In this document: positions 41,098 through 61,800 of the stretch, piece after piece
How the letters are laid out: each line of letters opens with the position of its first letter
Position numbering within the stretch: the stretch's first letter is position 1
DNA from: Candidatus Obscuribacteraceae bacterium
GTDB lineage: Bacteria > Cyanobacteriota > Vampirovibrionia > Obscuribacterales > Obscuribacteraceae
Length of the DNA stretch: 64,000 bases
Assembly (NCBI GenBank): GCA_044226015.1
Contig: JBGAHS010000002.1
Span: 256,001 to 320,000 of the forward strand
Direction: 5' to 3'
Position numbers and translations under genes: made by a program
The notes under the pieces: model-generated
What the model was told of the DNA's origin: nothing
The model's database searches: none
Seen by the model: the letters and a program-made list of their open reading frames with translations, nothing else

Positions 41098-41895
41098 CTA
41101 AGATGGTAGCAAACGATCTCGTTCTTGCAAAAGTTGTGCCACCATACTAATCGCGATTTCATTGGGGTGATTGCTGCCAATCGGAAGTCCCATGGGGCAG
41201 AAGAAAGACTTGCTTTGCTCTGCGCTGAGACCAGCGTCGATAATGTCCTTACGCAAGCGCACCGCTTTAGCTTCACTACCAATTACACCGAGGTAGGGAA
41301 ACTTTCGAGATTGGAGAATCTTGATTAGAATTGGGCTATCGGTGCTGTGACCCATAGTCATGAGCGCCACAAAAGCACCATCGGGAATTTTCTGAACATA
41401 ATCAACCATATCTGGAACACAGATTGCATTGATAGAGGGACTTTGCGGAAGCTTGTTTAGCCATTCCTCGCGAGAATCAACACAGGTGACTTTGCAATCC
41501 AACTTTAGCAGCAAGTTCAATAGAGCATTAGCAACATGACCAGCTCCAAAAACCATAATATTCCACGAGCTACAATTATGTTTTTCGAAAAAGAGCTTGA
41601 CCATGCCGCCGCAGGTCATACCAACGTCACGTTCAAGGCTCCAATTTACGAAATGCGTCTTGCGTGAAGAGTCATCAGTTTGCAGCAGCTCAACAGCTTC
41701 GTCAATTGCTTTCTTCTCGACCTTGCCACCACCAACGGTTCCGTAAAACAAGCCAGAAGCAGTCACGAGCATTTTAGTACCGACATCATTCGGCACACTA
41801 CCTGTAGTATCAACAACCGTCACCGCAACAAAAGGAGTTTTACGAGACAAGAGCTCGTTCACCTTTTCGTAATAGGCTTGAGTGTCAATGCCCAT
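41098..41895 (-). CDS. xdhC: Xanthine dehydrogenase accessory protein
   Basis: GSVP, GTVGGG, GMTCGG, FGAGHV, YLGVIGS and CPMGL...PNEIAIS motifs. Confidence 0.93.
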   Translation of the reverse strand: MGIDTQAYYEKVNELLSRKTPFVAVTVVDTTGSVPNDVGTKMLVTASGLFYGTVGGGKVEKKAIDEAVELLQTDDSSRKTHFVNWSLERDVGMTCGGMVKLFFEKHNCSSWNIMVFGAGHVANALLNLLLKLDCKVTCVDSREEWLNKLPQSPSINAICVPDMVDYVQKIPDGAFVALMTMGHSTDSPILIKILQSRKFPYLGVIGSEAKAVRLRKDIIDAGLSAEQSKSFFCPMGLPIGSNHPNEIAISMVAQLLQERDRLLPS

Positions 41896-41916
41896 GGCGA
41901 GCTATCCTCTAACTGC

Positions 41917-44268
41917 TCAGGTTCCAGCCACCGCAGCTTTGGACTTTTTCTCATTTAGTGCAGCCAGGCACATTACGACTTCTTCGTTAGTTGCCGGCAA
42001 TTGAAGCCTGGCCAACTCAGCCCCACTTACTGAACCAAGCGCGTATTTTACTGCGCACCAAACAGACAGTCCCAAACAGAGAGGTGGCTCACCAACCGCC
42101 TTAGTTCCAACTACGTTTACCGGATTCTCATGGTCGATCCAATTCACATTGAAAACACGAGGCGTGTCTTGAACATTTGGAATTTTATAAGTAGTTGGAG
42201 AATGGCTCAAAAGAGTACCGTCTGCAGCATAGGTCAAAGATTCTGTTGTAACCCATCCCATGCCCTGAACGAATGCGCCGGTTAGCTGCCCTCTCGCTAT
42301 ACCAGGATTGACGGGCTTACCTATGTCCATAAGGATATCGACACGATCCACCACGATGTCACCAGTAAACTTGTCTATAGTGACCTCAGCGATGGCTGCG
42401 CCTTGTGTGTAATAAAGGAACGGATGACCGGATGCTGTGCCTTCAGGTCCAGCATCCCAACTCCAATCGATGCCTTTTGTCGCGTAGAAACCGCGCTCGC
42501 CAAGGCTAACTCGATTGAGATACGCAAGTTTCACCAACTCCTTAAAAGTCAGCTTGAATGCGGGTCGCCGACGATCAAAAATGTAGCCGCCTTCCCATCT
42601 CACGCTATCAGGCGCCGGAAGAATGTCGGCAACCTTAGTTGCAATATGATGCGCAGCGAGGTCTGTCAGCCCCTTGCGAATTTTCTGGCAAGCATCAACA
42701 GCAGCAGACCCATTGAGGTCTGTAGCACTTGATGCAGCAGTCGCAGAGGTGTTGTTGTTTTTCTCAGTTGATGTTGGCATCACAATAACTTGATCAGCAT
42801 CGATATCGAACTCGCCTGCCACAATCTGCTTGATGTTTGTGTTGACCCCCTGCCCCATTTCGGTTGCGCCAGTCGAAACTTGCACACTGCCGTCAAGGTA
42901 TACATTTACGAGCGCGTTAGCTTGATTCAAATGTTTTGTATTGAAGGAAATACCAAACTTAACGGCCGAGCACGCAATGCCTTTCAAATGCGTGTTTGAC
43001 TTAGCATTGAACTCATCAACAGCCAGCTTTCTTTGCTTGTATTCAGAAGATGTTTCGAGATCAACAAATATCTTCTCCAGATTATTATCGAAAACAATTT
43101 CCCCATAAGGAGTAGTGTTTCGCTCTTCCTTTCCATAAAGATTGCGCTTACGAACCTCCATGGGGTCGAGCTTTAAGTAAGCCGCGATTTCTTCCATGAT
43201 ATTTTCAATTTGTGCAATTCCCTGGGGTCCACCGAAACCACGGAAAGCAGTATTAGGAGGCAAATGAGTTTTGCAGATGGTTCCCGTTATATCGGCGTTG
43301 TCCAAATAATATGCATTGTCCACATGGCACATTGCTCTTGCCATAACGGCAGTGGATAGGTCGAAAAAGGCGCCGCCATCAGAATAGAAGTCGACCTTCA
43401 GACCAGTAATGACACCATCTGCGGTGAATGCGACTTTATAATCATTCTTGAAAGGGTGCCGCTTTCCGGTAACCTGCATGTCTTGATCTTTGTTATAGAC
43501 TATCTTTGCGGGACGACGAGTCTTCAACGCCACAAGAGCTGCCATTGCAGCTGGATGAGTAGCCTGGCTCTCTTTACCACCGAAGCCACCACCCATTCTT
43601 TTTGTGATGCAAACGACCTCATTTATGTTCAAACTAAGCAGATGCGCAATAACTTCTTGCACTTCTGATGGATGCTGCGTTGAAGAATGCACTTCAAGCT
43701 GATTGTATTCCTTCGGTATGACGTATGCCGCCTGAGACTCAAGGTAGAACTGCTCTTGTCCTTTGTTCTCAAAAACACCTTCAATAGTATGAGCTGCATT
43801 TTTGAAAGCTGTTTCTACATCGCCTCGCTTAATTCTGCGAGTGGGTCCTAAAAAGGATTTTTTCGCCCGAGCCTGGTCGATGGTCAATATCAAATCGAGC
43901 TTTTCGTAATCGATCTTTATTGCCTTTTTCGCAGCTTCGATAGCTTTTCGGGTCTCGGCAGCAATCACAACAATCGGCTGTCCCATGAATTCGATTTCCT
44001 CTTCGACAAGAAGAAGCTCATCCTTGATGATAGGACCAAATCTATTGTCGCTGGGTAGGTCTTTATAAGTAAACAAAGCTACCACGCCATCAACTTTTCT
44101 GGCGTCTTCGATGTTTAGCGACTTCAACTTCGCGTGTGAAACAGGCGCATAATAGAAATCTACAAGAAGCTCACCACGGGCTGTCGGAAAATCATCTATG
44201 TAGATGGATTCACCCGAGACGTGCCCCTTAGCTGAATCATGCGGTATATCCTTCCCTACGGCTGACAT
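41917..44268 (-). CDS. xdhB: Xanthine dehydrogenase molybdopterin subunit
   Basis: QEQFYLE, RMGGGFGGKESQ, AFRGFGGPQG, TEMGQG and KAVGEPP motifs. Confidence 0.96.
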   Translation of the reverse strand: MSAVGKDIPHDSAKGHVSGESIYIDDFPTARGELLVDFYYAPVSHAKLKSLNIEDARKVDGVVALFTYKDLPSDNRFGPIIKDELLLVEEEIEFMGQPIVVIAAETRKAIEAAKKAIKIDYEKLDLILTIDQARAKKSFLGPTRRIKRGDVETAFKNAAHTIEGVFENKGQEQFYLESQAAYVIPKEYNQLEVHSSTQHPSEVQEVIAHLLSLNINEVVCITKRMGGGFGGKESQATHPAAMAALVALKTRRPAKIVYNKDQDMQVTGKRHPFKNDYKVAFTADGVITGLKVDFYSDGGAFFDLSTAVMARAMCHVDNAYYLDNADITGTICKTHLPPNTAFRGFGGPQGIAQIENIMEEIAAYLKLDPMEVRKRNLYGKEERNTTPYGEIVFDNNLEKIFVDLETSSEYKQRKLAVDEFNAKSNTHLKGIACSAVKFGISFNTKHLNQANALVNVYLDGSVQVSTGATEMGQGVNTNIKQIVAGEFDIDADQVIVMPTSTEKNNNTSATAASSATDLNGSAAVDACQKIRKGLTDLAAHHIATKVADILPAPDSVRWEGGYIFDRRRPAFKLTFKELVKLAYLNRVSLGERGFYATKGIDWSWDAGPEGTASGHPFLYYTQGAAIAEVTIDKFTGDIVVDRVDILMDIGKPVNPGIARGQLTGAFVQGMGWVTTESLTYAADGTLLSHSPTTYKIPNVQDTPRVFNVNWIDHENPVNVVGTKAVGEPPLCLGLSVWCAVKYALGSVSGAELARLQLPATNEEVVMCLAALNEKKSKAAVAGT

Positions 44269-45710
44269 ACTGCTACCCTCCCCTCTTGCAAATCATAGAA
44301 AAACTTCAACATAAGATTTCGCGCAAGCTGCAAGCGAAATGCCTTAGAGCCACGAACATCATCAATCGGTGTAATTTCGCTGGCAGCCAGTTCCCCAGCC
44401 TCCCGCGCATTCTCGAGAGTGAGTTCTTTGCCTTTCCAGAACTCTTCAGTTTTTGGCAAGCGCAGAATTGTAGCCGCAACGCCACCATATGCAATGGCAA
44501 TGTTTTCCACCACATTTCCCTTCAGGCTTAGCTTGAAAGCTGCCGTGTTTGTCGAAATATCCAGGTGTTTGCGCCGGGACACTTTGTAAAGCTTCACGAT
44601 ATCGCCCTTCTTGGGAAGCTCTAAAGCAACGGAACTGATGAACTCGTCTCGTTCCATATCGAAAATTTTGTAGCCCTTATAGAACTCATTTATTCTCACT
44701 TGCCGGCTTCCGCGGGCGCTGCGAAGCTCAATCACCGCATCCATCACAAACAAGAATGGCGGTGTGTCAGCGATGGGTGAAGCGTTTGCGATGTTACCAG
44801 CGAGAGTTCCGGCATTTCTGATTTGAGGAGAACCAAATACCCACAAAATATTATGAAACTCAGGAACCTTTGCCCTGAAATAATCTTCGAGCTGACTTAA
44901 GGTAACCCTCGCACCAATCGTCACCAGCCCGTTTGTTTCAGAAATCTGGTCTAATCCTCGAAGATTTGAAAAGCTCATCACCGCCTGTGGTGCGTAGCCT
45001 CTCTTATTCATCACAACACAGACATCTGTTCCGCCAGATATGATTACAGCTTCAGGGTGCTCAGCCTTAAACTTGCTGGCGTCCTCTATGCTCGAAGGAA
45101 TGAATGCTGTAAAACCATCATCAGAGCGCAACGTCACACTCTCTTTTAAAGCAGACTGAAATGCCTTAATCATCTCTGCTTCAGGATACTGCTCTTCTAA
45201 TGGAAGCAACTCCTCAGGCTTTACTTCCATGCCCGATTTCAAAATAGGCTCGTAACCAGTACATCTGCAAAGGTTTCCCGTAGTGCAATCCTTCAGTCCC
45301 TGCAAATCTGCTTTGCCATTCACTTTTTTGAGGTCGTCAAAATAACCGCACATCGCCATGATGAAGCCAGGCGTACAAAAACCACACTGTGTGCCATGAC
45401 ATTCTGTCATGCACTTTTGAACTTCATTCAGCTGAGCATTTTGCTTCAAACCTTCAACCGTGATGATGTGGGTCAGGTCCATCTGATGCATGTACTTGAT
45501 GCAAGAGTTCAGCGCTTTGTACTCCAACTTTCCATCTTTCAATTTGCCAACGAGAACCGAGCAAGCACCGCAATCGCCTTCCTCGCAAACAATTTTGGTT
45601 CCAGTAACTCCCATGCGATATCGCAAGAACGAGGATAGCGGCTGAAAAGCTTCGTCTCCCTTAACTTTCCACTCTTTGCCGTTGACGTAAAAATGTAAGT
45701 AGTCTCTCAT
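44256..45710 (-). CDS. xdhA: Xanthine dehydrogenase small subunit (2Fe-2S/FAD)
   Basis: GTKIVCEEGDCGAC, QCGFCTPG, GNLCRCTGY and GNIANASPIAD motifs. Start taken at MRDYLHF after AAGGAAG. Confidence 0.95.
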   Translation of the reverse strand: MRDYLHFYVNGKEWKVKGDEAFQPLSSFLRYRMGVTGTKIVCEEGDCGACSVLVGKLKDGKLEYKALNSCIKYMHQMDLTHIITVEGLKQNAQLNEVQKCMTECHGTQCGFCTPGFIMAMCGYFDDLKKVNGKADLQGLKDCTTGNLCRCTGYEPILKSGMEVKPEELLPLEEQYPEAEMIKAFQSALKESVTLRSDDGFTAFIPSSIEDASKFKAEHPEAVIISGGTDVCVVMNKRGYAPQAVMSFSNLRGLDQISETNGLVTIGARVTLSQLEDYFRAKVPEFHNILWVFGSPQIRNAGTLAGNIANASPIADTPPFLFVMDAVIELRSARGSRQVRINEFYKGYKIFDMERDEFISSVALELPKKGDIVKLYKVSRRKHLDISTNTAAFKLSLKGNVVENIAIAYGGVAATILRLPKTEEFWKGKELTLENAREAGELAASEITPIDDVRGSKAFRLQLARNLMLKFFYDLQEGRVAVCQP

Positions 45711-46186
45711 AAACTTCCTTGATTGAGGCGAGTCAAAGTAGTTAGATCGCCTGAAATGACTATCATAGGGCATTCAATGAGATAAAACACCCATGGCAGC
45801 CCAACTTACTATTCCCCCGTGACCGAGACTCCAAGCGTCTACTATCTAATAACTTAATGGGAATTCCGGAGACTCCTCTCCCCGCAACCAAGCTTCTAGA
45901 AGCCTTTTCGGCATTTACCCCCAAGCCGGGGATGCTCAGAGCCGAAACAAAAGAGGAGAAGTGGCGACTTGCAAGCCTAGCCTGGCAAATCCTCTAGAAT
46001 TGAGCACCGGTTTTGTGAACGTAACTTCAAAAACTCTACGCAATCGCCCGGTGAGAGCAAGCAAAATCGGAAAACGAGATTAGTTTTTCTCTAGAATCGC
46101 TTAGCTGAAGCATTTGAGGCGGGTAGATGGCCAACGAAAGTAATAAAATTAGCCTGCTCTGAAATCACCAGCTTGTGAGGGATTGT

Positions 46187-47734
46187 ATGCACTCTTCGAA
46201 AGTTTTATCACTACTTTCTTCACTGCTAATCGCAGGAATTTCACTCACAGGCTCGGCGCATGCGGCGACAAAGAGTATTCTTGAAATTAAGCCAGCACCG
46301 AAGCACGAAGGCATAGTGTTCGACCAATATTACCTAGCCTGCTTATCTCAAGCATCCTACATGATTGGAGATTTGGAGAGCAAAACTGCTGTACTTGTCG
46401 ACCCAGAACGAAATATCGACAAGTATGTCAAAGACGCTGAGGCTCAGGGTCTTACGATAACCCATGTGATACTCACTCACGTTCACGCTGATTTCATAGC
46501 AGGACATATTGAAAGCGAAAAGCGCCTTAAAACAAAGATTTGCATGGGTTACAAGGCTGAAGCGAAATTCAAGTTTGAGCCGCTCAAAGAAGGAGACGTA
46601 ATCAAAGTTGGTCGCCTGAATTTGAAGGTTCTGGAAACGCCAGGACATACGACAGAATCCATTTCATTGCTGGTTTACGACAGCAAACAAGATGCAGCAA
46701 AGCCCTATGCCGTGTTGACAGGTGATTGCCTCTTCATCGGAGACGTTGGCCGTCCAGATTTGATGGCAACTTTCGGCGTCACTGCAAAAGAATTGGCCGG
46801 TATGGAATATGATTCATTGCATGACAAACTCTTGAAACTGCCTGATGAAACTCTGGTTTACCCAGCCCACGGAGCCGGTTCTCTCTGCGGCAAAAATCTC
46901 AGTGCAGAAACTGTTTCTACCATGGGCGAGCAACGCAAGTCTAATTATGCATTGCAGGACATGAGCAAAGAGAAATTCGTCAGCCTGCTAACGAGCAACC
47001 AACCAAAGCCACCAAAATATTGGGGATTTGAACGAAAGATCAATCTCAATGCACACAAGACGCTCGATGAAGCAATTGCCGAAAATTTAAAGCCTGTAAA
47101 GGCTGAAGCTGCTATTGCCTCGCAAGAGAAGAACAAAACGCAAATTCTCGATGTACGTGAAGCCGATGATTTTGCAAAACACTACCTGAAAGGTTCGGTG
47201 AACATTCCACTGAGCGGACACTATGCATTCTGGGCAGGAAACTTCCTGGACATCGATGCTCCGATTGTGGTTATCGCACCTACTGGCAAAGAGAAGGAAG
47301 CAGTAGTTCGGCTGGGACGCATCGGATTCGATAATGTCACTGGCTATGTTGATGGTGGCATCGATGCATTTTCGACTCATCAGGAATTACTCAATACTAC
47401 AAATCGTCGCTCTGCTAGTGAGTTGGCGAAAAGCATGCAGTCCGAAAAACCGCCACTGGTAGTAGACATTAGAAATGAAATGGAAAGAAAAGAGTCATTC
47501 ATTGAAGGCACCACTCCAATTCCATTGATGAACATTCTTGATGAGAGCAGTAAATTGCCTCACGACAGAGAGATAGTTGTGCAATGTGCAACAGGTTTTC
47601 GCTCTTCGATAGCAGCCAGCTTGCTGCGCAAGAAAGGGTTCGACAAAGTTACTGATCTCAGCGGCGGCATCACGTCATGGAAAGAGAGTAAACTTCCGGT
47701 AAAAGGCTCCACTTCTTGCAAAGCAGTTGATTGA
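46187..47734 (+). CDS. Persulfide dioxygenase-like MBL hydrolase with two rhodanese domains (CstB-like) and a signal peptide
   Basis: THVHADFIAGH, TPGHT, TGDCLFIGDVGRPDL and PAHGAGSLCGK. First rhodanese lacks the Cys; second has QCATGFRS. N-terminus MHSSKVLSLLSSLLIAGISLTGSAHA. Confidence 0.9.
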   Translation: MHSSKVLSLLSSLLIAGISLTGSAHAATKSILEIKPAPKHEGIVFDQYYLACLSQASYMIGDLESKTAVLVDPERNIDKYVKDAEAQGLTITHVILTHVHADFIAGHIESEKRLKTKICMGYKAEAKFKFEPLKEGDVIKVGRLNLKVLETPGHTTESISLLVYDSKQDAAKPYAVLTGDCLFIGDVGRPDLMATFGVTAKELAGMEYDSLHDKLLKLPDETLVYPAHGAGSLCGKNLSAETVSTMGEQRKSNYALQDMSKEKFVSLLTSNQPKPPKYWGFERKINLNAHKTLDEAIAENLKPVKAEAAIASQEKNKTQILDVREADDFAKHYLKGSVNIPLSGHYAFWAGNFLDIDAPIVVIAPTGKEKEAVVRLGRIGFDNVTGYVDGGIDAFSTHQELLNTTNRRSASELAKSMQSEKPPLVVDIRNEMERKESFIEGTTPIPLMNILDESSKLPHDREIVVQCATGFRSSIAASLLRKKGFDKVTDLSGGITSWKESKLPVKGSTSCKAVD

Positions 47735-49005
47735 TGTCTAGCAAAAAAGAGTTCCAGAAAGAACTAGATCGAGTCAAAAGCGAAATACACAGGCGGAATT
47801 TTCTGAAGGCGCTCTTGCTTGGCACTATAGGTGGTGCTGCAACTGCCTGCTCTAAGCTTGGTGAAAACTCTCAAGAGCCACCAATAAACATTCCAGCAGG
47901 CCAGACGGTAGCTCGTTTTCCAGAAAAATCAGAATTAATAGTGCTCACCGACCGCCCTCCACAGCTGGAGACGCCGCTACTATATTTGCGTGAGGACCTC
48001 ACACCAAACGAAGCATTTTTCGTACGCTGGCATTACTCAGGCATACCAACTCAGGTTGATTTGAGAACCTTCAAGCTCAACGTCACAGGGTCTGTAGAAA
48101 CTCCACTTTCGCTGTCAGTAGATGACTTGAAGAAGAACTTCGAAGCGAAATCGATCGTAGCCGTTTTGCAATGCTCAGGCAATTCGCGTCGTTATGTGGA
48201 ACCAAACGTACCCGGTGGTCAATGGCAGAATGGTGCGATGGGTAACGCAAAGTGGACGGGCGTTCCACTGAAAGCATTGCTGGAAAAAGCAGGGCTAAAG
48301 AAAGAAGCAGCAGAAATTGCCCTGGCGGGACTGGACGAGCCACCACTTTCAAACATGCCAAAGTTCGCAAAGTCACTGGCGCTGGAACATGCTCTGAGCG
48401 AAGATGTGCTGGTCGCTTATGCAATGAACGATGCGCCACTACCCATGGTGAATGGATTTCCGCTGAGACTCGTTGTGCCAGGCTATTACGCGACCTACTG
48501 GGTAAAATCGCTGGCTGAAATTTCAGTGCTGCCAACAAAATTTGATGGCTACTGGATGAAAAAGGCGTATCGAATTCCTGACAATGAATATGCAGAAGAA
48601 AAGCCTGACTGCCTGGCAAAGGACACAGTTCCCATTAACAGAATGAATGTCCGGTCGATATTTGTTCGTCCAGACACAAGCGACCTAGTAAGCGCCGGAA
48701 AGGCTTTCGATATCGAAGGCTTGGCGTTTGATGGAGGAGTGGGCATCAGCAAAGTAGAGCTGAGCATTTACTCCGGTGATAATAACCCTGGAAAGTGGGC
48801 TGAGGCAAAAATTCAGCCAAATAGTTTTGGCAAATACTCGTGGGTACGCTGGAAATTCAACTGGCAGCCACCTGGCAAAGGCGATTACACTCTTGCAGTT
48901 CGAGCAAGCAATGCAAAAGGAGAGACCCAAACAGATCTAATTCATTGGAATAAGAGTGGCTATATGCGCAACTCTATAGAGAAGATGAAAGTGACGGTGG
49001 TCTGA
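47731..49005 (+). CDS. Sulfite-oxidase-family molybdoenzyme (SorA-like), Tat lipoprotein
   Basis: HRRNFLK...AATAC signal; FFVRWH, LQCSGNSR (Mo-Cys), NGFPLRLVVPGYY and WN..GY.RN motifs. Confidence 0.9.
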   Translation: MMSSKKEFQKELDRVKSEIHRRNFLKALLLGTIGGAATACSKLGENSQEPPINIPAGQTVARFPEKSELIVLTDRPPQLETPLLYLREDLTPNEAFFVRWHYSGIPTQVDLRTFKLNVTGSVETPLSLSVDDLKKNFEAKSIVAVLQCSGNSRRYVEPNVPGGQWQNGAMGNAKWTGVPLKALLEKAGLKKEAAEIALAGLDEPPLSNMPKFAKSLALEHALSEDVLVAYAMNDAPLPMVNGFPLRLVVPGYYATYWVKSLAEISVLPTKFDGYWMKKAYRIPDNEYAEEKPDCLAKDTVPINRMNVRSIFVRPDTSDLVSAGKAFDIEGLAFDGGVGISKVELSIYSGDNNPGKWAEAKIQPNSFGKYSWVRWKFNWQPPGKGDYTLAVRASNAKGETQTDLIHWNKSGYMRNSIEKMKVTVV

Positions 49006-49379
49006 TGAAAAGCTACATTTTGCTTCTACTCTTGTGCGCATCTTCTCTTCTTGTCTCTTGTTCAAGTACAGAACCGAGCGCAGATTCTCCTGCCCCGGCA
49101 CAAATCTCGAAAACGGCAAAAGGCGAAGAATCGCCAGTGCATAGCATTGAGCTCCCAAAACTGGAAGCAGACTTTCCGCCAGGAGAGGGAAGAGACCTGT
49201 TTATTTCACGATGCACCGTTTGCCATTCACTTCGCTACGTGACCATGCAACCCGACTTTCCTGAAGCAACATGGGTAAAGGAAGTTGATAAAATGCGCAA
49301 GACCTGGGGAGCACACATTACCGAGGACGAGGCAAAAACAATAGTATCGTATTTAGTGACAATCAAAGGCAAGAAATAG
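49005..49379 (+). CDS. SorB-like monoheme cytochrome c lipoprotein
   Basis: LLVSC lipobox, CTVCHS and W.KEV.KM...WGAHI. Confidence 0.88.
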   Translation: MKSYILLLLLCASSLLVSCSSTEPSADSPAPAQISKTAKGEESPVHSIELPKLEADFPPGEGRDLFISRCTVCHSLRYVTMQPDFPEATWVKEVDKMRKTWGAHITEDEAKTIVSYLVTIKGKK

Positions 49380-49392
49380 GGAGATTGCTGAC

Positions 49393-52188
49393 TTGAGCGA
49401 AGAGCACCCACAGCAAGAAAACGAAGCAGCCCTGCCGCGAATAGAATATGGGCTTATCAAGGCACATGGCATCGCAGCTCTTGCGGCGGTGGTTATTTCG
49501 GGACTGTTTGGACTTTTCATTGCCACAAAAATGCATATGCCAGATATGGCCGGAACTCATGCATGGTCAAGCTGGGGACGACTTCGCTTCGACCACACAC
49601 AGGGCATATTTTTTGGATGGCTGGGAAATGCGTTTCTCATGTTTCTCTATCACATCGTGCCCCGCCTGAGCAATCGTGAAGTATTCAGCAAAAAGTTAGG
49701 CTGGTTCATATTTGCAGTTTGGAACTTTGCAATCTTGATTCCCGGATGGATATTATGCTTGATGGGACAAAGTCAGTCTCTGGAATGGGCAGAGTTTCCA
49801 CTTGTCATAGACATATTCGTTGTAGCAGGCATGGCACTCGCCACGCTTCAATTCGTTCAACCTCTTTTGAGCAACGCTTCACTATCAAAACTATACGTTT
49901 CAGGTTGGTACATCATCGGTGGACTCATATTCACCCTGCTCGCTTATCCATTAGGAAATTTCGTACCACAATTGGTTTCTGGGGCAAAAGGTGCAGCCTT
50001 CAGCGGACTATGGATTCACGATGCAGTAGGTCTTTTTGTTACACCGCTTGCGCTAGCGATCTCTTACTGGGTCATTCCGGCAGTCACCCGCCGCCCAATC
50101 TTCAGCCATTTCCTCTCGATGATAGGATTTTGGCTTTTGTTCTTTGTATATCCTCTTAACGGCACGCACCACTACGTATATTCGTCAATTCCAATGGAAA
50201 CACAAGTCGCAGCGGTTACGGCATCTGCGATTTTAGGCATCGACGTAATTCTGGTAGTCACAAACCTTCTGCTTTCAATGAAGGGCGCAGCTAAAGAATC
50301 TATGGATGACACACCGCTGCGCTACGTTTTAACAGGAACATTCTTCTATTTAATTGTAAGCCTGCAGGGCTCTCTACAAGCATTGATGCCTATCAACAAG
50401 CTAGTTCATTTTAGCGATTGGGTAATAGGGCACGCGCACCTCGCGATGGTAGGTTTTGCTAGTTTCACCGTAATTGGTGGCATGGGTCATATCTGGCAGC
50501 GAATTCCAGAGGCAAAGTTCAACGCAGGTTTGTACCGAGCTTCGTACTGGCTGATTTTTATCGGGATGCTAGTGATGGTAGGCGAGCTGACTCTTGCAGG
50601 TCTCGTCGAAGCTAATATCTGGCAAGGAGCACAACCGTGGATTGAGTCGGTGCGAGCAGTTAAGCAATACTGGCTGGTCAGGACGGGCAGCGGCGCAATC
50701 TTGTTAATCGGTTTCCTGCATTTGTGCTTCGCATTCTGCTCTGGCAAGAAAACCGAAAGCAGTGTTTCATCAATTTCAACACAAGAAGAAAATGCAGCAA
50801 GCAAGGATGAACAGCTTGCGCAAAAACCAGCGCCTGTTTTGAACATGGCCTATTTGTCAGCTTCAATTGCAGGCGTGGGCTTCTTTCTTATGTCTTTCAG
50901 CTTGCTTGGAATAGCTCCTGGTTTGGCTATCGAAAGTGACGTGAAGAAAACAAAACCAAAGACGATGATTCCGCTTACGGCTAGCGAAGAACATGGACGT
51001 GAGGTATACGCTCGCGAAGGATGCGCTTATTGCCACACGCAGCAGGTCAGAAAAGTAGAATCTGACGCCGAAAGATTTGGTATGCCAACCCGGTCATGGG
51101 AAACAGTTTATGATTACCCGCAACTCTGGGGCACCCGAAGAATAGGACCAGACCTGGCAAGGGAGTCTTCAGTTCGCACAGATGACTGGCAATTAGCTCA
51201 CCTATATAACCCCCGATTAATTGTAAGCGATTCTGTCATGCCGCCTTATCCCTGGTTGTTCGACGGTTCAATCGACAAACCTAATAAGGATGGCCGGGAC
51301 TTACTTGCATACATCAAATCGCTAGGTCGTGCGCGCGAGCTTTCAGGAATAGAAGGGCAACCGGTTCCCGAGTATTGTCAATGCTCAGATGACGTAAAAA
51401 AACTCGAAACCACACCAATAGGATTTAACGCAAACGCCAGCAAAGCCAGACGAACAGGACCTCCCATTCAATTGTCGATGCCTACAGATGCTGCTGTGCT
51501 CAGCACTACGGTGAAAAGAGGCGAAACTCTGTTCGCACAGAACTGCGCTTCATGCCATGGAGCCGAAGGACGTGGAGACGGCAAAGTTGCAGCAAACCTG
51601 ATGCCCGCACCTGCGAACCTGAGAATCAAGAAGCTTTCAGCGGCACGCATCAGCTTCGTGCTTGAGAATGGTGTTTATGGAACGTCCATGCCGGCCTGGC
51701 GTGATATGGCTCACGATGATTTGGTCAGCCTTGCCAGCTACGTAAGCACTCTTTCTGACAAGGCACCATCGATTTCGATGCCGGTCACCGATATGACGAC
51801 AACACTCTTCAAAAAGAATTGCGCCAGCTGTCACGGCACCGCTGGTGGTGGCGATGGACCAGCAGCGGGAGCAATGGCTCCCGTACCGACAAACTTCCAC
51901 CTGGTGAAGCCTAGCATTGCACGAGCGCTCATGGTAATCAACGACGGCATTCCAGGAACGTCCATGCCACCCTGGAAAGACCAACTTTCTCTGCCCGAAA
52001 GAGCAATGCTCGCTTCTTACGTTTCGTCCATGTATAAAGAAGAAGGAACTTCCAAAGCGAAGGCAGAAGGCACAAGCAAATCAGAAGGCAGCACTAAGCC
52101 AGAAGCAACTACTAAACCAGAAGGCACAACTATCTCAGAAGCCACTATTGATACCGCAACTGGCACAAAACCTGAGGTAAGAAAATGA
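49393..52188 (+). CDS. Fused C-family (cbb3-like) heme-copper oxidase: CcoN + CcoO + two cytochrome c domains
   Basis: WGRLRFDHTQ, WIHDAVG, YPLNGTHHY and WVIGHAH (six His ligands). CcoO motifs EGCAYCHTQQVR, WGTRRIGPDL and SVMPPY. Two further CASCH motifs. Confidence 0.9.
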   Translation: MSEEHPQQENEAALPRIEYGLIKAHGIAALAAVVISGLFGLFIATKMHMPDMAGTHAWSSWGRLRFDHTQGIFFGWLGNAFLMFLYHIVPRLSNREVFSKKLGWFIFAVWNFAILIPGWILCLMGQSQSLEWAEFPLVIDIFVVAGMALATLQFVQPLLSNASLSKLYVSGWYIIGGLIFTLLAYPLGNFVPQLVSGAKGAAFSGLWIHDAVGLFVTPLALAISYWVIPAVTRRPIFSHFLSMIGFWLLFFVYPLNGTHHYVYSSIPMETQVAAVTASAILGIDVILVVTNLLLSMKGAAKESMDDTPLRYVLTGTFFYLIVSLQGSLQALMPINKLVHFSDWVIGHAHLAMVGFASFTVIGGMGHIWQRIPEAKFNAGLYRASYWLIFIGMLVMVGELTLAGLVEANIWQGAQPWIESVRAVKQYWLVRTGSGAILLIGFLHLCFAFCSGKKTESSVSSISTQEENAASKDEQLAQKPAPVLNMAYLSASIAGVGFFLMSFSLLGIAPGLAIESDVKKTKPKTMIPLTASEEHGREVYAREGCAYCHTQQVRKVESDAERFGMPTRSWETVYDYPQLWGTRRIGPDLARESSVRTDDWQLAHLYNPRLIVSDSVMPPYPWLFDGSIDKPNKDGRDLLAYIKSLGRARELSGIEGQPVPEYCQCSDDVKKLETTPIGFNANASKARRTGPPIQLSMPTDAAVLSTTVKRGETLFAQNCASCHGAEGRGDGKVAANLMPAPANLRIKKLSAARISFVLENGVYGTSMPAWRDMAHDDLVSLASYVSTLSDKAPSISMPVTDMTTTLFKKNCASCHGTAGGGDGPAAGAMAPVPTNFHLVKPSIARALMVINDGIPGTSMPPWKDQLSLPERAMLASYVSSMYKEEGTSKAKAEGTSKSEGSTKPEATTKPEGTTISEATIDTATGTKPEVRK

Positions 52189-52337
52189 GCATGCTATTCA
52201 TTCTTGCAGCAGTTTTAGCATTTGTATGTGTCTTTTGCTTACTATTCACACGAAAGAATTTCCGAATTCAGTTCGAAGAACCTAAGTACCAGATGCTAAA
52301 GACTGAGCAGCGCTACGACTCCCAAGTCAAAAGGTAG
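52185..52337 (+). CDS. 50-aa single-TM peptide, CcoS/CcoQ-like oxidase accessory
   Basis: ATGA overlap with the oxidase stop; MSMLFILAAVLAFVCVFCLLFTRKNFRIQFEEPKYQMLKTEQRYDSQVKR. Confidence 0.7.
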   Translation: MSMLFILAAVLAFVCVFCLLFTRKNFRIQFEEPKYQMLKTEQRYDSQVKR

Positions 52338-55836: not shown

Positions 55837-58800
55837 CTGCGTTCATCTTCATACTACTCTCTGGCCGCGCTCTCAGCCTTAGTTTTGCTGATCTTACCGA
55901 CAGCAAAAGCCAGGGCGCAAAGCGCTGCAAATTACAATCTCGGCTCAGCGGCACGAACCAGAGCAGCAGGGCTCAGCCAGGGACAGAGCGTCAACATCAC
56001 GCGCGCTGGACAGTCGGTAACTATTAGGGCTGGAAGCCTATTGACACCAGCAGAGAAGGTGGCTTTAACTCAGGTTTTGTCGTCTGGACAACAATCTCTT
56101 ATATTGAATGCACGAGGTATGGCGATTGGTGGACAGTTCAGTTCTACCGACCTTTCTTCGAATATAGGCAACCTCGGTGTGCCGCAGGGAGTGACAGGCT
56201 ATCTCAACTTCAGCCAGCAAAATTCATTGAGTTTGAGCGGAAATTTGCTCAACAATGGCAGCCTGTATGCGTTTTCCAGTAACCCAGGCAATGCGACTGG
56301 AAGCATCAGCGCTAATAACATAGTCAATTATGCCAACGCTTTGATTTCATCAAATTTGAACAGCGCATTTGCAAGCAGCACAGGTGCCTTGCCAAATTTC
56401 AATTTGATTTTACACGCGGTCAACAACATTACCAATCACGGCGTGATTTCCAGCTCAGGCTCTTTAACTTTGTCGGCTGGCAGTTCGTTAATCAACACCC
56501 CGCAAACACTCACTCAAACAACCCAAACTCTAATTCAAGCTCAAAACAACCTGAACATAATCACAAGCTCAATAATCAATTCGGGAAATTTGACCTCGCT
56601 TGCGTCAAACATTAACGTAAGCTCGTCTCTCCAAAAACTCGACTTCAATAATAATTCCGGAGTAGTGAGTGCGATTCTCGGAGACATTAACGTAAGCAAT
56701 CTTTCCAGCTCTGCCTTAGCATCGTTGAATCTTCAGGGTGGGAATTTTTACTCTCAATCACTCAATCTCTCAGCTGCTAGCGGTGCGGTAGAGGCAAATC
56801 TGGGTGAAGTGAGCGGTTGGATCAACGTAAACGCATGCAAGGCGAACGTTGGCGCCGCGACAGACAATCTGAAACTGGGAAACCTGAACATAACCGGTGA
56901 CCCTACGTTTTTTAATTCAGCAGGAACCCTTACCTTATCAAACCTCAGTAATACCTCAGGAAACGCTCTGGCATTGATAGCAAGCCATGACGTCATCGTC
57001 AGTGCCGGTACAATCGACACAACAAATCCACTCGGCGGAAATGGTGGCAACCTCACCATCATTGCTGGTGCCAACATCACTGGCGGAAGCAGTGGTTCAA
57101 ATGACACGACAACAACCCTTACTATCACTGGTCCCTCAGCAACGGGTGGGGCCATTGACACATCAGGTGTGAGTTCCATTAATACCAGCGGAACTTTGAC
57201 AACAACCAACCACGGCGGAAACGGTGGCAATGTTTTTATTGCTGCTTTCAGTGGTACTAAATCAGGAACCCTTGAACCTGGCACAGTCAACCTGGGAAGC
57301 AGCGGCTACATCAATACCGCTGGTGGTGGCAGTGATTTCACAAGCAGCGGACGAGTCACCATCATGGCTGGAGCAACAGCCGACCCCGCATCTGGAGCAG
57401 CAATTGTCCTTCCAGCCATTTATACAGCGACAGACCCTGTTTACTCTCAATCAAGTTCATCAGGCGGCAACGTCACGATATCGACAGCAACGCCTGTTGT
57501 TTCAGGTACTGTCACCATATTAAATGGAGCCATGGGCGGTACAGGAAGTATCACAGCAGGAACAACACAAAACACAAGCGTTTCCATTGCATCAAGAGGT
57601 GGCGGCGCAAGCATCGAGGTTCAGCCGACTCTGGCACAATGGCAGATAGACATAATCACGCAGGCGCTCAACATTGTTAACGCCCAAAGATTAGCGGAAG
57701 ACCCGTCACTGCCAGCACTTCAATATAGCGCTGGGCTCAGCGCCGTGGCCAGCCAGCAGGCTTCCTATTTAGCACAAACTGGACACCTTGGTCATTTCAG
57801 CACACTAGGGGAAACGCCAACAAACAGAGCTACAGTTATAGGCTTATCCACTTCCGGATGCTGCGCGGAGAATGCAGGGTTCGCTTCTGGTTACACAATT
57901 TTGGACGGATTCAATGTCGTCAACGACATGATGTTCGCAGAACCCAATACCAGTGGCACCCACCACTTCAACTTAGTGGGAACAAGCGCCAGCCACAATA
58001 ATTACGCTGGTTTCGGATTTGCAACTAATGGCTCGTCGATGTACTTCGTAACTGATTTTTCCAGAAACGACCCAGGAGCTGGCAAGACCAACATCAACAG
58101 CACTCCAATCTTGGGTGGGCTCGGTGGTGCACCAGGCAACACACCAGTACCACCCGTAGTATCAGGCAGCAACAACACTGTTCGTGCAATAGGTGCTAAT
58201 AATTATTTGCCCACCAGCATCATAAGCAACGGAAACGTTTCAATTACAGCCGGAAAAGATCTTACTGCAACAGGCTCTATAATAACGAACGGGCAAAACG
58301 GTATTCAATCTAGCTCAGGTAGCCCAAGAAATGCTACGAACGCGGGAAACATCAGCATAACAGCTGGAAATAATGTAAGCCTGTTCAATCTACAAGCAGG
58401 CGGGGGAATTGGAGCGACTTCTAACTCAGCAAATAAAGGCGCAGGTGGTGCTGGTGGCAGCATCAACGTTAGCTCTAGCAACGGAAGCATAAGCATTCTG
58501 CCTCTCAATACCGCATGTTCACCTTGCATAGCCGTCGCCGCACAAGGTGGTGCTGGCGGAGCCGCGATGGCTAGTGGACTCAGCGGAGGCAAGGGCGGCG
58601 ATGGCGGCACAGTCACGCTGACAGCTAACAATGGAAATATAAATCTAACAGCAATCGAAGTTGGCGGTGGCGGTGGCGCAGGCGGAGCAGGTGGTAGCAC
58701 AGGTGGTGCCGGTGGTGCTGGTGGCAAGGGTGGCAACATCACACTTTCTGCAAGCACAATCACAATACAAGACTACATTTCAGCCTCTGGCGGTGGTGGC

Positions 58801-61800
58801 GGCGGCGCAGGAGCCAGCGGCTCAGTGGCAGGCGGTGGTGGCGGCGGTGGAGCTTACGGCATGCCGGGCTTCGGTGGCACGTCAAATTCCACATCAGCCG
58901 GAGGCGGTGGCGCAGGCGGAGGACTGGTAGGTGCTTTCGGTGGACCGCGCACATCATCGATGATAGCCGAATTACGAAATGGCAATGGTGCTTCAGGCGG
59001 TGTTTCGGCACCTGGTGGCAGTGTCGGCATCATCGGAGGAGGTGGTGGCGGCGGCACCGGGTCATCAGGCACTGGCGGCAATGGTGGCGACATGGGCGCA
59101 GCGGGCTCTGGTTCTGGCGCGATAGCCGGAGGCGCTGCTGGAGCAGGTGGCAGCATCTCGATCACCGCAAAAACAGCAGTTGTTCAGTCGACAGTTTCAG
59201 GATTTTTTGGCAGCCTTTCTGCCACCAATGGAACGTCCTCAGTTCTATCAGCTGGAACGAACGGGACAGTGACAATAAGCACCAATGAAGGTTCAGTGAG
59301 CGCGGCGTCAACCTACAGCTCGCTCGCGGATTACAGCAGCGGCACTCGCACTGAAAGCCTTCTCGTTTCTGCTGGCTTCGAAGTGGGCTCGACAAAGGGC
59401 GGCAATGGTTCTTCTGGGGGCATATTAGCTGGTTCACAAGCTAATTCAATCACTATAAATGGAACTGGAAATTCAGGCTCTCTCAGCTCGGGAATTTTCT
59501 TCTCCAACGGAACAGCCTCGGTCACCATCATTGAGAACTCCCTCCCCGTAGTCTTTTCTGGTACTGCAAAGGTAACACCAGCTGAACTCATAGCCATCAA
59601 TCAAGTTTTACTCGGTGGCGGTCAAACCATAGTTTTAGATGCAAATGGAGCCGCTGTCGGCGGCAGTTTATCCATAAACTCCGGCAACATACCTGCGGGT
59701 GGGTTCACTAAACTTGTTTTACCACCAAGCGTCACGCTTACAGACAACGTTGCTGAACTCAGCTTTTCGGATAGTGTCACCATCAATGGAAGCTTCCTTT
59801 ACGCAGGCAGCAATGGCACCGCTACGATCACAACCCCGTTGTTCATTAACAATGGCAGCGTCTCACCTACAGGCGGCGCAACAAACCTGCTCATACAGAG
59901 CACTGCCGGAAGCAATCTAGAAATCGGTGGCAACGGCACCACTAGCGCACCGGGATCTCTGTCATTCACTGCCAGTGGTGGCGCACTGAACATCACAGGA
60001 AATGTCCACGTAAACAGCCCCAGCGTGACGATAAATGCAGGAGATGCAGTTGGCATCGCTCCTTCAGCCTCCTTTACGCTTAACACTGGAAACGTACTAA
60101 GCGTAAACACAGGCCTTATATTCAACTCTGCTGGATTTCTTGGAGGAACGCAGAACTTCAACCTGGCGCCAGCCGGCTCAGCAATTGGAACGATTGCAAA
60201 CTCAAATGGCGATGTTATTCTTGCTGCCAACCAGTTCATAAATAGCGCTGGAAAGAGCGTACTGATCATCGCTTCTGGAAACATCATTGGAAGCAAGCTC
60301 AGCTCAATAAATCTCTCGAATACCAAGGGAAAAGGCGGTAGTCTAATCGCCCTGGCAGGTTTTTCTTTCACTCCAGCGACGATCGGTCAAATCACAGATT
60401 TGAACCAACTATTTACTGTGTCTTCTGTTTCAGCAACTGGTGGTAGCATCAATCTTGCCAAAACCAGCATCAATACATCCAGTACTTTCAAATCAGCAAC
60501 GAACAGCGATGCCGGAAGTATCACCTTGCTAGGCAACGCAGTGGCGGGAGGCAACTCTGGTGTAGTCGTAACTGGTGCAATTAATGCTAGCTCAGTGTCA
60601 GGCAAAGGTGGAACGTTCAGGGTATTCGCCCCTGGTGGAGCGACCATAAACGGCGCTATTAACACAAAAGGAGCCAGCGGTGGCGGTGCGGTTTTATTGT
60701 CCGCCGCGCCATATACAAATGGATCTATTCAGGTACTTGGCGGATTCCTTTCGCCATCTGCTAACTTGCAGGCAGCCAGTCCAGCAGATGGAGCCGCTGC
60801 ATCTATCCTCATAAACGGCACTGTTAGCAGTTCTTCAAGCAACGGCGCCGGCGGCGCAGTAACACTCTCGGCTGACTCATTCATTCAGGTCAACGGAGCT
60901 ATCGACAGCAGCGCTCGCACCAGCGGCGGTGCGATAACAATCAACTCATTAAATGGCACAGTCAGCTTAGCTAATCTGAACTCGAGTGGACTGGCTGGCA
61001 GCAGCACCCTAACGACTGGTTCTGCAGGCAACATAAGTGTCAGTGCCTCATCGTTCATTTCAATCAAAGGCAATCTAAGCGCGAGCGGTGGCAGTACAAG
61101 TATTGCAAGACAGAATGCAGGTTCTGGCGCAAACATTAGTCTACAGACTTCCAACCGAGACTCATTGAGTGGATTCTACGTCGGCAACATTTCGGTAAGC
61201 GGCTATCTAAGCAGTGCCGGAGGAAACGCACTAGCTAAAACTTCGGGAGGAAAAGGCGGCAACGCAGGCGCCATAGACCTGAAGGCTGGCTATCTACAAG
61301 TCAAAGGAAAGAGCGGCGCTAACAGCATCATTGCGAGTGCAGGTAGCGGCTTTGCAGGAAAAGGAAGCTCCGGTTCCGTCAGTTTGAGCACCTATGCAAC
61401 TCAAGCGATTCCCACAAACTTTGACCTCTTGAGCAAAGTCGCCAGCGAATATGCGTTGCCTGGAGGAGTCTTTAATGTGGGCGCCGGAAGCGCTGTCGTC
61501 AACGGAACAGCAGGTTCAATTGTCAGCGGTACTGATACATTCAGCATAAGCAATGCAGCAGCGTTAAGCAAAAGCAGCAACGTACAGGGCAGACTTTCGG
61601 TCACCATTGGCGGTGGCGCACAACAATTAGACTATGAAGGACAACAGGTCAGCACCGCTTCGCTCACAGGCAACATAAGAACCAAGGTCACACCAGCTGC
61701 GGCGCTTGCGCTCTATCAGCTAGCTCTGGGACAGACGCAAACAATCGGACTCAACAGTGATGGCTCACTGTCTCCACAGAACCCGCAATCCAAGATTTCG

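Follow-up and report, generated by a model that had tools for sequence, protein, structure and literature searches.

Sulfite respiration is known from Thermus. A route from sulfite through a cytochrome to an oxidase is likewise described for Sinorhizobium meliloti, Starkeya novella and Campylobacter jejuni in the available portions of two reports (PMC4760952, PMC7759655). Here we describe a five-gene locus of Candidatus Obscuribacteraceae bacterium (Obscuribacterales; assembly GCA_044226015.1), which encodes a probable sulfite dehydrogenase of this kind in one unit with its own oxidase. The locus lies in a stretch of 64,000 nucleotides (C1, contig JBGAHS010000002.1, positions 256001-320000), here called the window, within a genome of 8.19 Mb that is 92% complete. 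With a probability of roughly 0.7, we read the locus from its sequence as a short chain that would run through the periplasm from sulfite to O2 and end in an oxidase of its own, and in which neither quinone nor complex III would take part. The cassette is real and conserved, its enzyme types are known, and its arrangement was not found described. A literature search, covering few subscription papers, gave nothing on the cassette or its oxidase clade among the matches listed. The available text of Hausmann et al. on peat Acidobacteria lists sorAB-like pairs and class C oxidases separately, with no linkage drawn there (10.1101/197269). The initial annotation had put the locus forward as a candidate undescribed system; this appears to hold for the dedicated oxidase clade and the operon, and not for sulfite respiration via cytochrome c, which was already known.

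The initial annotation placed five co-oriented genes on the forward strand, and all coordinates and junctions could be read directly (Table 1). One-nucleotide overlaps in TGATG join genes 1 and 2 (47732-47736) and genes 2 and 3 (49003-49007), genes 3 and 4 are separated by 13 bp (49380-49392) with GGGAG immediately ahead of the gap, and genes 4 and 5 overlap at ATGA (52185-52188). The xdhABC-like genes upstream run in the opposite direction, and the next gene downstream begins at least 50 bp past gene 5. Because a consensus scan stood at chance level, with 5 sigma-70 promoter-like sites against 7.9 expected and 11 terminator-like sites against 9.1, we infer the co-transcription of the five genes solely from their spacing. 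All five products carry features of exported or membrane-bound proteins, judged by eye from the sequences and their orthologues rather than by a predictor: a Sec-type signal in gene 1, a twin-arginine motif and lipobox in gene 2, a lipobox in gene 3, and membrane helices in genes 4 and 5.

Table 1. Genes of the operon, with positions in the window.
Gene	Product	Length (aa)	Position	Strand	Basis
1	CstB-like persulfide dioxygenase-pseudorhodanese-rhodanese	515	46187..47734	+	Pfam Lactamase_B + 2 Rhodanese
2	SorA-type sulfite dehydrogenase Mo subunit	423	47734..49005	+	PDB 2BLF, NCBIfam SorA
3	SorB-type monohaem cytochrome c	124	49005..49379	+	PDB 2BLF_B, NCBIfam SorB
4	fused C-family haem-copper oxidase, TTG start	931	49393..52188	+	domains, ligands, fold
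5	single-helix membrane protein	50	52185..52337	+	R-x3-E-x-P-K motif, loci conservation

The described enzymes closest to genes 2 and 3 are S. novella SorAB (2BLF), S. meliloti SorT/SorU and C. jejuni Cj0004c/Cj0005c, which have the same periplasmic molybdenum subunit and monohaem cytochrome c and the same catalytic residues. The product of gene 2 matches S. novella SorA with an E-value of 1.2e-115, and its NCBIfam scores are 482 bits for SorA, 187 for SorT, 164 for SoxC and 47 for MsrP. Residues R98, H100, the molybdenum ligand C147 and Y279 align with what we take to be R55, H57, C104 and Y236 in S. novella numbering, and the substitutions of entries 2CA3 and 2C9X align onto R98 and Y279. 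The catalytic motifs are kept in 24 aligned homologues, all 24 of which share the twin-arginine motif RRxFL (RRNFL at 20-24 in gene 2); a lipobox-like sequence ends at C39, and most cassette orthologues have a cysteine near the same place. The protein further combines a sulfite-oxidase fold with a dimerisation domain. Gene 3 matches the SorB chain 2BLF_B (E 7.5e-8) and has a lipobox ending at C19, the haem motif CTVCH at 70-74 and a conserved KM that likely supplies the distal methionine. SorA and SorB are by far the best-scoring NCBIfam families for the two proteins. An identity as MsrP/YedY was considered for gene 2 and rejected, as it scores 47 of the 207 bits set for that family and has a dimerisation domain and a c-type partner. 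The assignment of the molybdoenzyme to SorA in the initial annotation thus stands, and gene 2 is likely a SorA-type sulfite dehydrogenase, predicted to oxidise sulfite to sulfate. Unlike in these described enzymes, both subunits here carry lipoboxes, and lipid anchors would hold them to the outside of the inner membrane. Whilst the pair here is encoded with an oxidase, the sorAB loci examined in Cupriavidus metallidurans and Methylovirgula have no such oxidase nearby; in the available text of PMC6527743, the sulfite dehydrogenase genes of S. novella and S. meliloti accompany extracytoplasmic function sigma factors.

Gene 4 resembles the cbb3 oxidase CcoNOQP (3MK7, 8SMR) in its six histidine ligands, helix VII tyrosine, CcoO-type haem domain, two further c haems and overall fold. 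A CcoN part of 12 helices (approximately 17-455) is followed by a CcoO part with a 13th, anchoring helix (481-520) and CAYCH at 544, then by two more haem motifs (CASCH at 718 and 810) and a low-complexity tail (approximately 885-931); domain searches accordingly detect FixO and two CBB3 domains with three CxxCH motifs on a single chain, and no CuA. The protein aligns to 3MK7, and H68, H209, H259, H260, H347, H349, Y253 of helix VII, E131 and E134 show no variation across an alignment of 22 rows, so that every metal ligand and the C-family tyrosine are present, in agreement with the oxidase family first proposed. The AlphaFold model (mean predicted local distance difference test, pLDDT, 71.5; predicted template modelling score, pTM, 0.71) displays the 12 helices and the 13th, anchoring one, and finds cbb3 CcoN chains as its best folds (target TM-score 0.84, E ~1e-16), ahead of cNOR nitric oxide reductases (E 3e-10). 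The enzyme is nonetheless a divergent branch: it reaches 191 of the 583 bits required by the canonical CcoN model TIGR00780, and its clade is 28% identical to a canonical CcoN. Unlike CcoNOQP, it is one polypeptide without the membrane part of CcoP, has glutamine at Pseudomonas stutzeri E323 and glycine at H243, and is accompanied by a clade-specific 50-residue protein that is weakly CcoQ/FixQ-like. T217, Y225, S238, S242, Y253 and Y319 are kept at K-channel-like positions, presuming the residue list used for the K-channel and E323 to be correct, and an invariant H239 lies near the H243-to-glycine position. Since the housekeeping CcoN of the host and most divergent rows carry both the E323 and H243 replacements, these are no mark of sulfur-linked oxidases, and we rejected them as a hallmark of the clade.

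In a FastTree phylogeny of 76 of 95 CcoN rows, the window CcoN falls in a clade of 32 rows (SH support 100, stem 0.82). The nearest named carriers of the window oxidase are Obscuribacterales/Melainabacteria metagenome-assembled genomes, in line with a host among the non-photosynthetic relatives of Cyanobacteria. The 19 rows left out lack at least one of the six histidine ligands (P0124, P0143, P0149, P0218, P0229 and others). Several of these are fused to cytochrome domains; they are possible non-catalytic pseudo-oxidases, and some are perhaps fragments or misaligned. The clade is separate from the C-family oxygen reductase of the melainabacterial complex III-IV operon, which is cited in the available part of 10.1101/531145. 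This operon belongs to the same host group and oxidase family and is present on contig C5 of our host; the genome also encodes a bd oxidase. Unlike the window enzyme, the complex III-IV oxidase has split subunits, lies with Rieske and cytochrome b genes, and forms its own branch (32% identity between the two CcoN sequences). A related CcoN was found in 24 of 24 family relatives searched, versus 23 of 103 for the sulfite-linked copy. The housekeeping operon (locus L026, C5 ~64500-73000) comprises ccoN, ccoO-c, a CcoS-like open reading frame (ORF), a dihaem cytochrome c, Rieske and cytochrome b genes, along with a small ORF that by eye resembles the N-terminal membrane piece of CcoP, and another cytochrome b gene in fusion with a 4Fe-4S dicluster domain.

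The linkage between these genes is conserved, and the order is kept far past one genome, in class genomes, GTDB and metagenome loci alike. The clade oxidase occurs in 24 of 401 genomes of the class, namely the host and 23 of 103 family relatives. A close SorA is present in 26 genomes, and these include all 24. The sorA-sorB pair adjoins the oxidase in 25 of these 26, and the remaining one ends at a contig edge. GTDB loci, 14 in number and partly duplicating the class genomes, have sorA upstream of the oxidase in 13 cases and start inside the oxidase in one; in many, sorB and the oxidase are separated by a gene for a monohaem cytochrome c with a membrane anchor. The metagenome loci are the best 80 of at least 488 stretches encoding an oxidase relative. 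Where the flank suffices, sorA lies upstream in 63 of 63, sorB in 69 of 69, and a gene for an additional cytochrome c in 75 of 75; the N and O parts are fused in 73 of 73, and a TsdA-like gene stands behind the oxidase in 8 of 80, with the catalytic motif in six of the seven inspected. Because 79 of these 80 oxidases share 77-100% identity with a protein that bears the name Ca. Sulfotelmatobacter, we treat these loci as presumably acidobacterial and as non-independent.

The donor genes differ in Proteobacteria. TsdBA systems (5LO9, 4WQ7) with a cytochrome oxidase likewise pass electrons from periplasmic sulfur-oxyanion oxidation into c-type cytochromes; unlike them, the window carries SorAB and no TsdA. 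Among 498 matching plasmid records, seven encode the clade oxidase at 51-54% identity, after which identity falls to ~35%. On the four of these plasmids examined (Paraburkholderia, Komagataeibacter and Acetobacter) the oxidase follows directly behind tsdB-tsdA, the TsdA matching 5LO9 at E 5e-80, and three of the four loci have DsrE and binding-protein genes nearby. At an E-value of 1e-90 the clade oxidase was detected in none of 300 other genomes sampled across the phylum, and the viral contigs searched gave no relative. Wherever neighbors are readable, the clade oxidase sits beside sulfur-oxidising genes. What is conserved is the series sorA-sorB-(cytochrome c)-oxidase-small subunit, to which the dioxygenase is an Obscuribacterales addition.

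The Paraburkholderia fungorum plasmid pBIL carries a large sulfur island (59700-88300; L044, L159), with a second c-type cytochrome gene pair, SQR, a persulfide dioxygenase (PDO), TauE, DsrE, a YeeE pair, binding proteins and a LysR regulator, as well as two solitary ctaD genes, both of which neighbor a DUF2244 gene and have no adjoining subunit II annotated. On plasmids of Phyllobacterium and Sinorhizobium (L045, L046), divergent C-family oxidases encoded by two genes form a sister group, accompanied by TauE, a P-type ATPase, hemA and SCO, and in Phyllobacterium soxYZ is near; these may be another sulfur-linked branch.

The fifth gene accompanies the oxidase closely. An ORF with the strict R-x3-E-x-P-K motif directly follows the oxidase in 68 of 85 loci, and the 17 misses include three outside the clade, several with a variant motif, and six in which a TsdA-like gene stands next and no intact small ORF was found. 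At these six (L051, L055, L068, L071, L083 and L116) the small-subunit ORF is truncated or was not found, and at L051 and L116 its start runs into that of tsdA. Across 34 aligned rows E31 and P33 never vary, and a profile built without proteobacterial rows finds a 63-residue ORF behind the tsdBA-linked proteobacterial oxidases (E 1e-13 and 6e-9), with no match behind housekeeping, rhizobial or canonical cbb3 operons. A spurious ORF was rejected on the conserved motif, position and profile matches across loci. Modeled with oxidase residues 10-660, the protein scores 0.76 against 0.00 for the best control, with at least 91% contact agreement between runs and a partner pLDDT of at least 76; of solved complexes 116 of 157 attain the mark used for such scores, as do 2 of 215 mismatched pairs, counts that apply only roughly to the alignments used, and likeness to solved cbb3 complexes may contribute. 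The gene 5 protein is specific to this oxidase clade and is predicted to bind the oxidase as a subunit. Its Glu-Pro-Lys motif is predicted to lie on the cytoplasmic loop ahead of helix VII, where the E-x-P-K residues of the model contact CcoN 167-170 and 235-240, beside the K-channel-like serines. In cbb3 oxidases a glutamate of CcoP serves as proton entry, and we speculate that the glutamate of gene 5 might act in a CcoP-like manner. Its likeness to CcoQ/FixQ is weak (PF05545 matches 3 of 34 rows, best E 6.5e-4; hhalign probability against one CcoQ, 2%), and a search of the PDB gave no match. Descent from a split-off CcoP N-terminus was tried and set aside, homology being unsupported at an hhalign probability of 0.4%.

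In Staphylococcus aureus, CstB is encoded in an operon with SQR, CstA and TauE, in a cst context that also includes CstR, and its product is thiosulfate according to the available text of PMC12934615. The gene 1 protein shares its dioxygenase-pseudorhodanese-rhodanese layout, matching 3TP9 (E 1e-75) and 3R2U (E 9e-61), and every mappable residue named for the S. aureus enzyme (H56/H119/D145, C201-G202, C408, R370, R413 and Gln13) is present, as a predicted Fe triad H98/H154/D180, the Cys-Gly loop C234-G235, the rhodanese C467, R429, R472 and Q55. These motifs are kept in 13 of 13 aligned operon orthologues. Unlike S. aureus CstB, gene 1 has a Sec-type signal (residues ~1-26, cleavage AHA/A), is joined to SorAB, lacks C20 and comes from a genome in which no SQR was found. 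By a hydrophobicity test, 40 of its 120 best homologues have a hydrophobic N-terminal extension, all within the top 48; two more top homologues appear extension-like by eye, and the remainder mostly begin at the catalytic domain. A paralogue on host contig C7 has no extension. A periplasmic persulfide dioxygenase was once proposed for Acidithiobacillus and dropped as the genes lacked signal peptides, in the portion of PMC6335251 available; gene 1 is a candidate for such an enzyme. It lies upstream of the cassette in 20 of 24 assessable Obscuribacterales loci, and the exported type is present in 23 of 26 cassette genomes, including two unlinked copies that keep a signal-like N-terminus, with no close match in other genomes among 104 searched. 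Among the loci examined, the dioxygenase is an accessory confined to Obscuribacterales cassettes. One cassette-free relative (L197, G234:C3:1246000-1255000) has a classic cst-like cluster of a CoA persulfide reductase-like gene, rhodanese, TauE, a signal-less CstB-like dioxygenase and SQR.

Taken as a sulfite-to-O2 chain, the operon would work as follows. SorA would oxidise sulfite to sulfate in the periplasm, and electrons would pass from SorA to SorB and then along the three c haems that the fused oxidase carries to haem b3-CuB, where O2 would be reduced, bypassing quinone and complex III. Sulfite oxidation would liberate protons on the outside and the oxidase would take up protons on the inside, so that removal of a toxic anion would bring a small proton-motive gain. 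That the exported CstB-like enzyme feeds this wire from thiosulfate or polysulfide is a tentative proposal, to which we give slightly less than even odds. At the rhodanese Cys467 of this enzyme, thiosulfate would be cleaved to sulfite and a protein persulfide, which the Fe site would oxidise with O2, for a net conversion of thiosulfate and O2 into two sulfite. SorA would pull this net reaction forward, and glutathione would not be needed, the self-contained Cys-Gly substrate mimic being suited to a glutathione-poor compartment. By analogy, this proposal would echo an old scheme for Thiobacillus novellus, which reportedly linked rhodanese, sulfur oxygenase, sulfite oxidase and cytochrome oxidase. 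Because the proteobacterial members follow tsdB-tsdA instead of sorAB, the core is likely a wire from sulfur oxyanions to O2 whose donor enzymes, SorAB or TsdBA, can be exchanged. A broader proposal, which we consider possible and rather doubtful as a whole, is that a C-family branch has specialised in at least three phyla as a plug-in oxidase for SorAB or TsdBA, together with a small subunit of its own that provides, by its glutamate, a substitute for the absent proton entry of CcoP, and that in Obscuribacterales the exported, glutathione-independent CstB-like enzyme completes a five-gene, Sox-free route from thiosulfate and O2 to sulfate, amounting to an unrecognised sulfur respiration.

Several observations weigh against the sulfite-to-O2 chain or its sulfur supply. 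Genes 2 and 3 fall below the NCBIfam cut-offs for SorA (482 of 600 bits) and SorB (75.5 of 93 bits), for which reason we call them SorAB-like rather than curated equivalogs. The glutamine and glycine at the E323 and H243 positions leave proton pumping uncertain. The metagenome loci are mostly one related group rather than independent samples, and split-form clade members named Bryobacteraceae and Methylobacterium exist outside the neighbor counts. No dioxygenase gene precedes the cassette in 4 of 24 assessable loci of Obscuribacterales or in any of the 36 assessable metagenome loci, and SorA is not known to act on thiosulfate. The initial annotation held that CstB-type enzymes yield sulfite or thiosulfate; the closest studied enzyme, S. 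aureus CstB, yields thiosulfate only and releases no free sulfite in the available text (PMC12934615), which undercuts a simple hand-over of sulfite from the dioxygenase to SorA. Of the self-contained sulfur-to-O2 chain first proposed, the identities of SorA and the oxidase and their linkage remain, and the dioxygenase as a direct supplier of sulfite needs correction. The oxidase, moreover, could equally draw on the general cytochrome c pool.

This last point opens onto an alternative that we hold to be unlikely and nonetheless the most serious: a sulfur-stress regulon with no private wire, in which SorAB would reduce the common cytochrome c pool, the dioxygenase would stop at thiosulfate as CstB chemistry does (PMC12934615, in the part available), and the oxidase would be a spare, for example a sulfide- or sulfite-tolerant one, that also serves complex III. 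The other oxidases of the host could take the electrons, the dioxygenase is unlinked in some genomes, and in Methylovirgula HY1 an unlinked cbb3 oxidase is upregulated on thiosulfate with SorAB, according to the accessible text of PMC9371685. A regulon of this kind sits poorly, however, with donor genes that abut the oxidase at junctions of 1-13 nt, with the small cytochrome c gene placed between sorB and the oxidase in many lineages, and with the absence of complex III genes from the flanks examined; the exchange of SorAB for TsdBA while oxidase and small subunit are retained is what a direct acceptor predicts. A different substrate for the molybdenum enzyme, be it another oxyanion or an S/N-oxide, would make the chain unrelated to sulfite, and we judge this improbable. 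Gene 2 does lie under the curated SorA cut-off, no sulfite source is evident in the window (TauE-like genes lie elsewhere in the genome), and Hausmann et al. warn, in the text available, that acidobacterial sorAB-like genes might function otherwise (10.1101/197269). Nevertheless, all mappable S. novella SorA active-site residues are kept in the 24 homologues, the MsrP score is just 47 bits, and the neighbors across phyla are sulfur enzymes (dioxygenase-rhodanese, TsdA, DsrE and YeeE).

Least probable is a nitric oxide reductase that couples sulfite oxidation to nitric oxide removal. C-family enzymes are able to reduce nitric oxide, the clade is just 28% identical to canonical CcoN, and D210 and Q325 replace the canonical Asn and Glu. 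Against this, the helix VII Y253 is invariant and cbb3 folds rank well ahead of cNOR, grounds on which a cNOR identity was rejected, and the host has a separate haem-copper protein of 798 residues on contig C8 that is qNOR-like, a label assigned by eye.

The initial annotation reported no Sox or SQR genes in the window, and none were found genome-wide either: the SoxA/TsdA domain and SoxY were not found, SoxB-like matches fell far below cut-off, and SQR was not found with two SQR queries or among the 12 scanned of 22 PF07992 matches. As the genome is 92% complete, we read such genes as not found rather than absent. RuBisCO likewise gave no match in the genome, and the chain would accordingly serve a heterotroph for detoxification or as an additional source of energy. 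The genome does carry TatC, MoaA, two genes for cytochrome c assembly and two TauE-like genes. Elsewhere, C4 (~145200-149400) holds ORFs that by eye appear Rieske-like and cytochrome b-like, with a weak match to cytochrome bd subunit I (E 1e-8), and C10 (~356300-357800) holds a dense array of at least 11 tRNA genes in ~1.4 kb.

Within the window, the divergent neighbor is an xdhA-xdhB-xdhC xanthine dehydrogenase cluster (41098-45773, reverse strand), apparently placed likewise in three genomes of the same genus, and in another genus the cassette is flanked by malate synthase and an allantoinase-like amidohydrolase. Two genera have genes of purine catabolism beside the cassette, perhaps through shared molybdenum use or plain synteny. 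Further downstream, an ORF of more than 2700 codons on the forward strand (55885-64000) runs past the window end; its low-complexity, Ser/Thr/Gly-rich product probably represents a large protein of the cell surface.

Surveys that trace sulfur oxidation in genomes by sox, dsr, sqr or soe would miss this cassette. It is present in approximately one quarter of the Obscuribacteraceae-level relatives searched and recurs in soil metagenome contigs, and for this reason sulfite or thiosulfate respiration by heterotrophs may be undercounted. The cassette would comprise a minimal respiratory chain in a single operon, transferable to a laboratory host, and its TsdBA version on plasmids of Paraburkholderia, Komagataeibacter and Acetobacter offers a cultured entry point. 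If the broader proposal is true, non-photosynthetic relatives of Cyanobacteria and common soil Acidobacteria would possess an unrecognised form of sulfur respiration.

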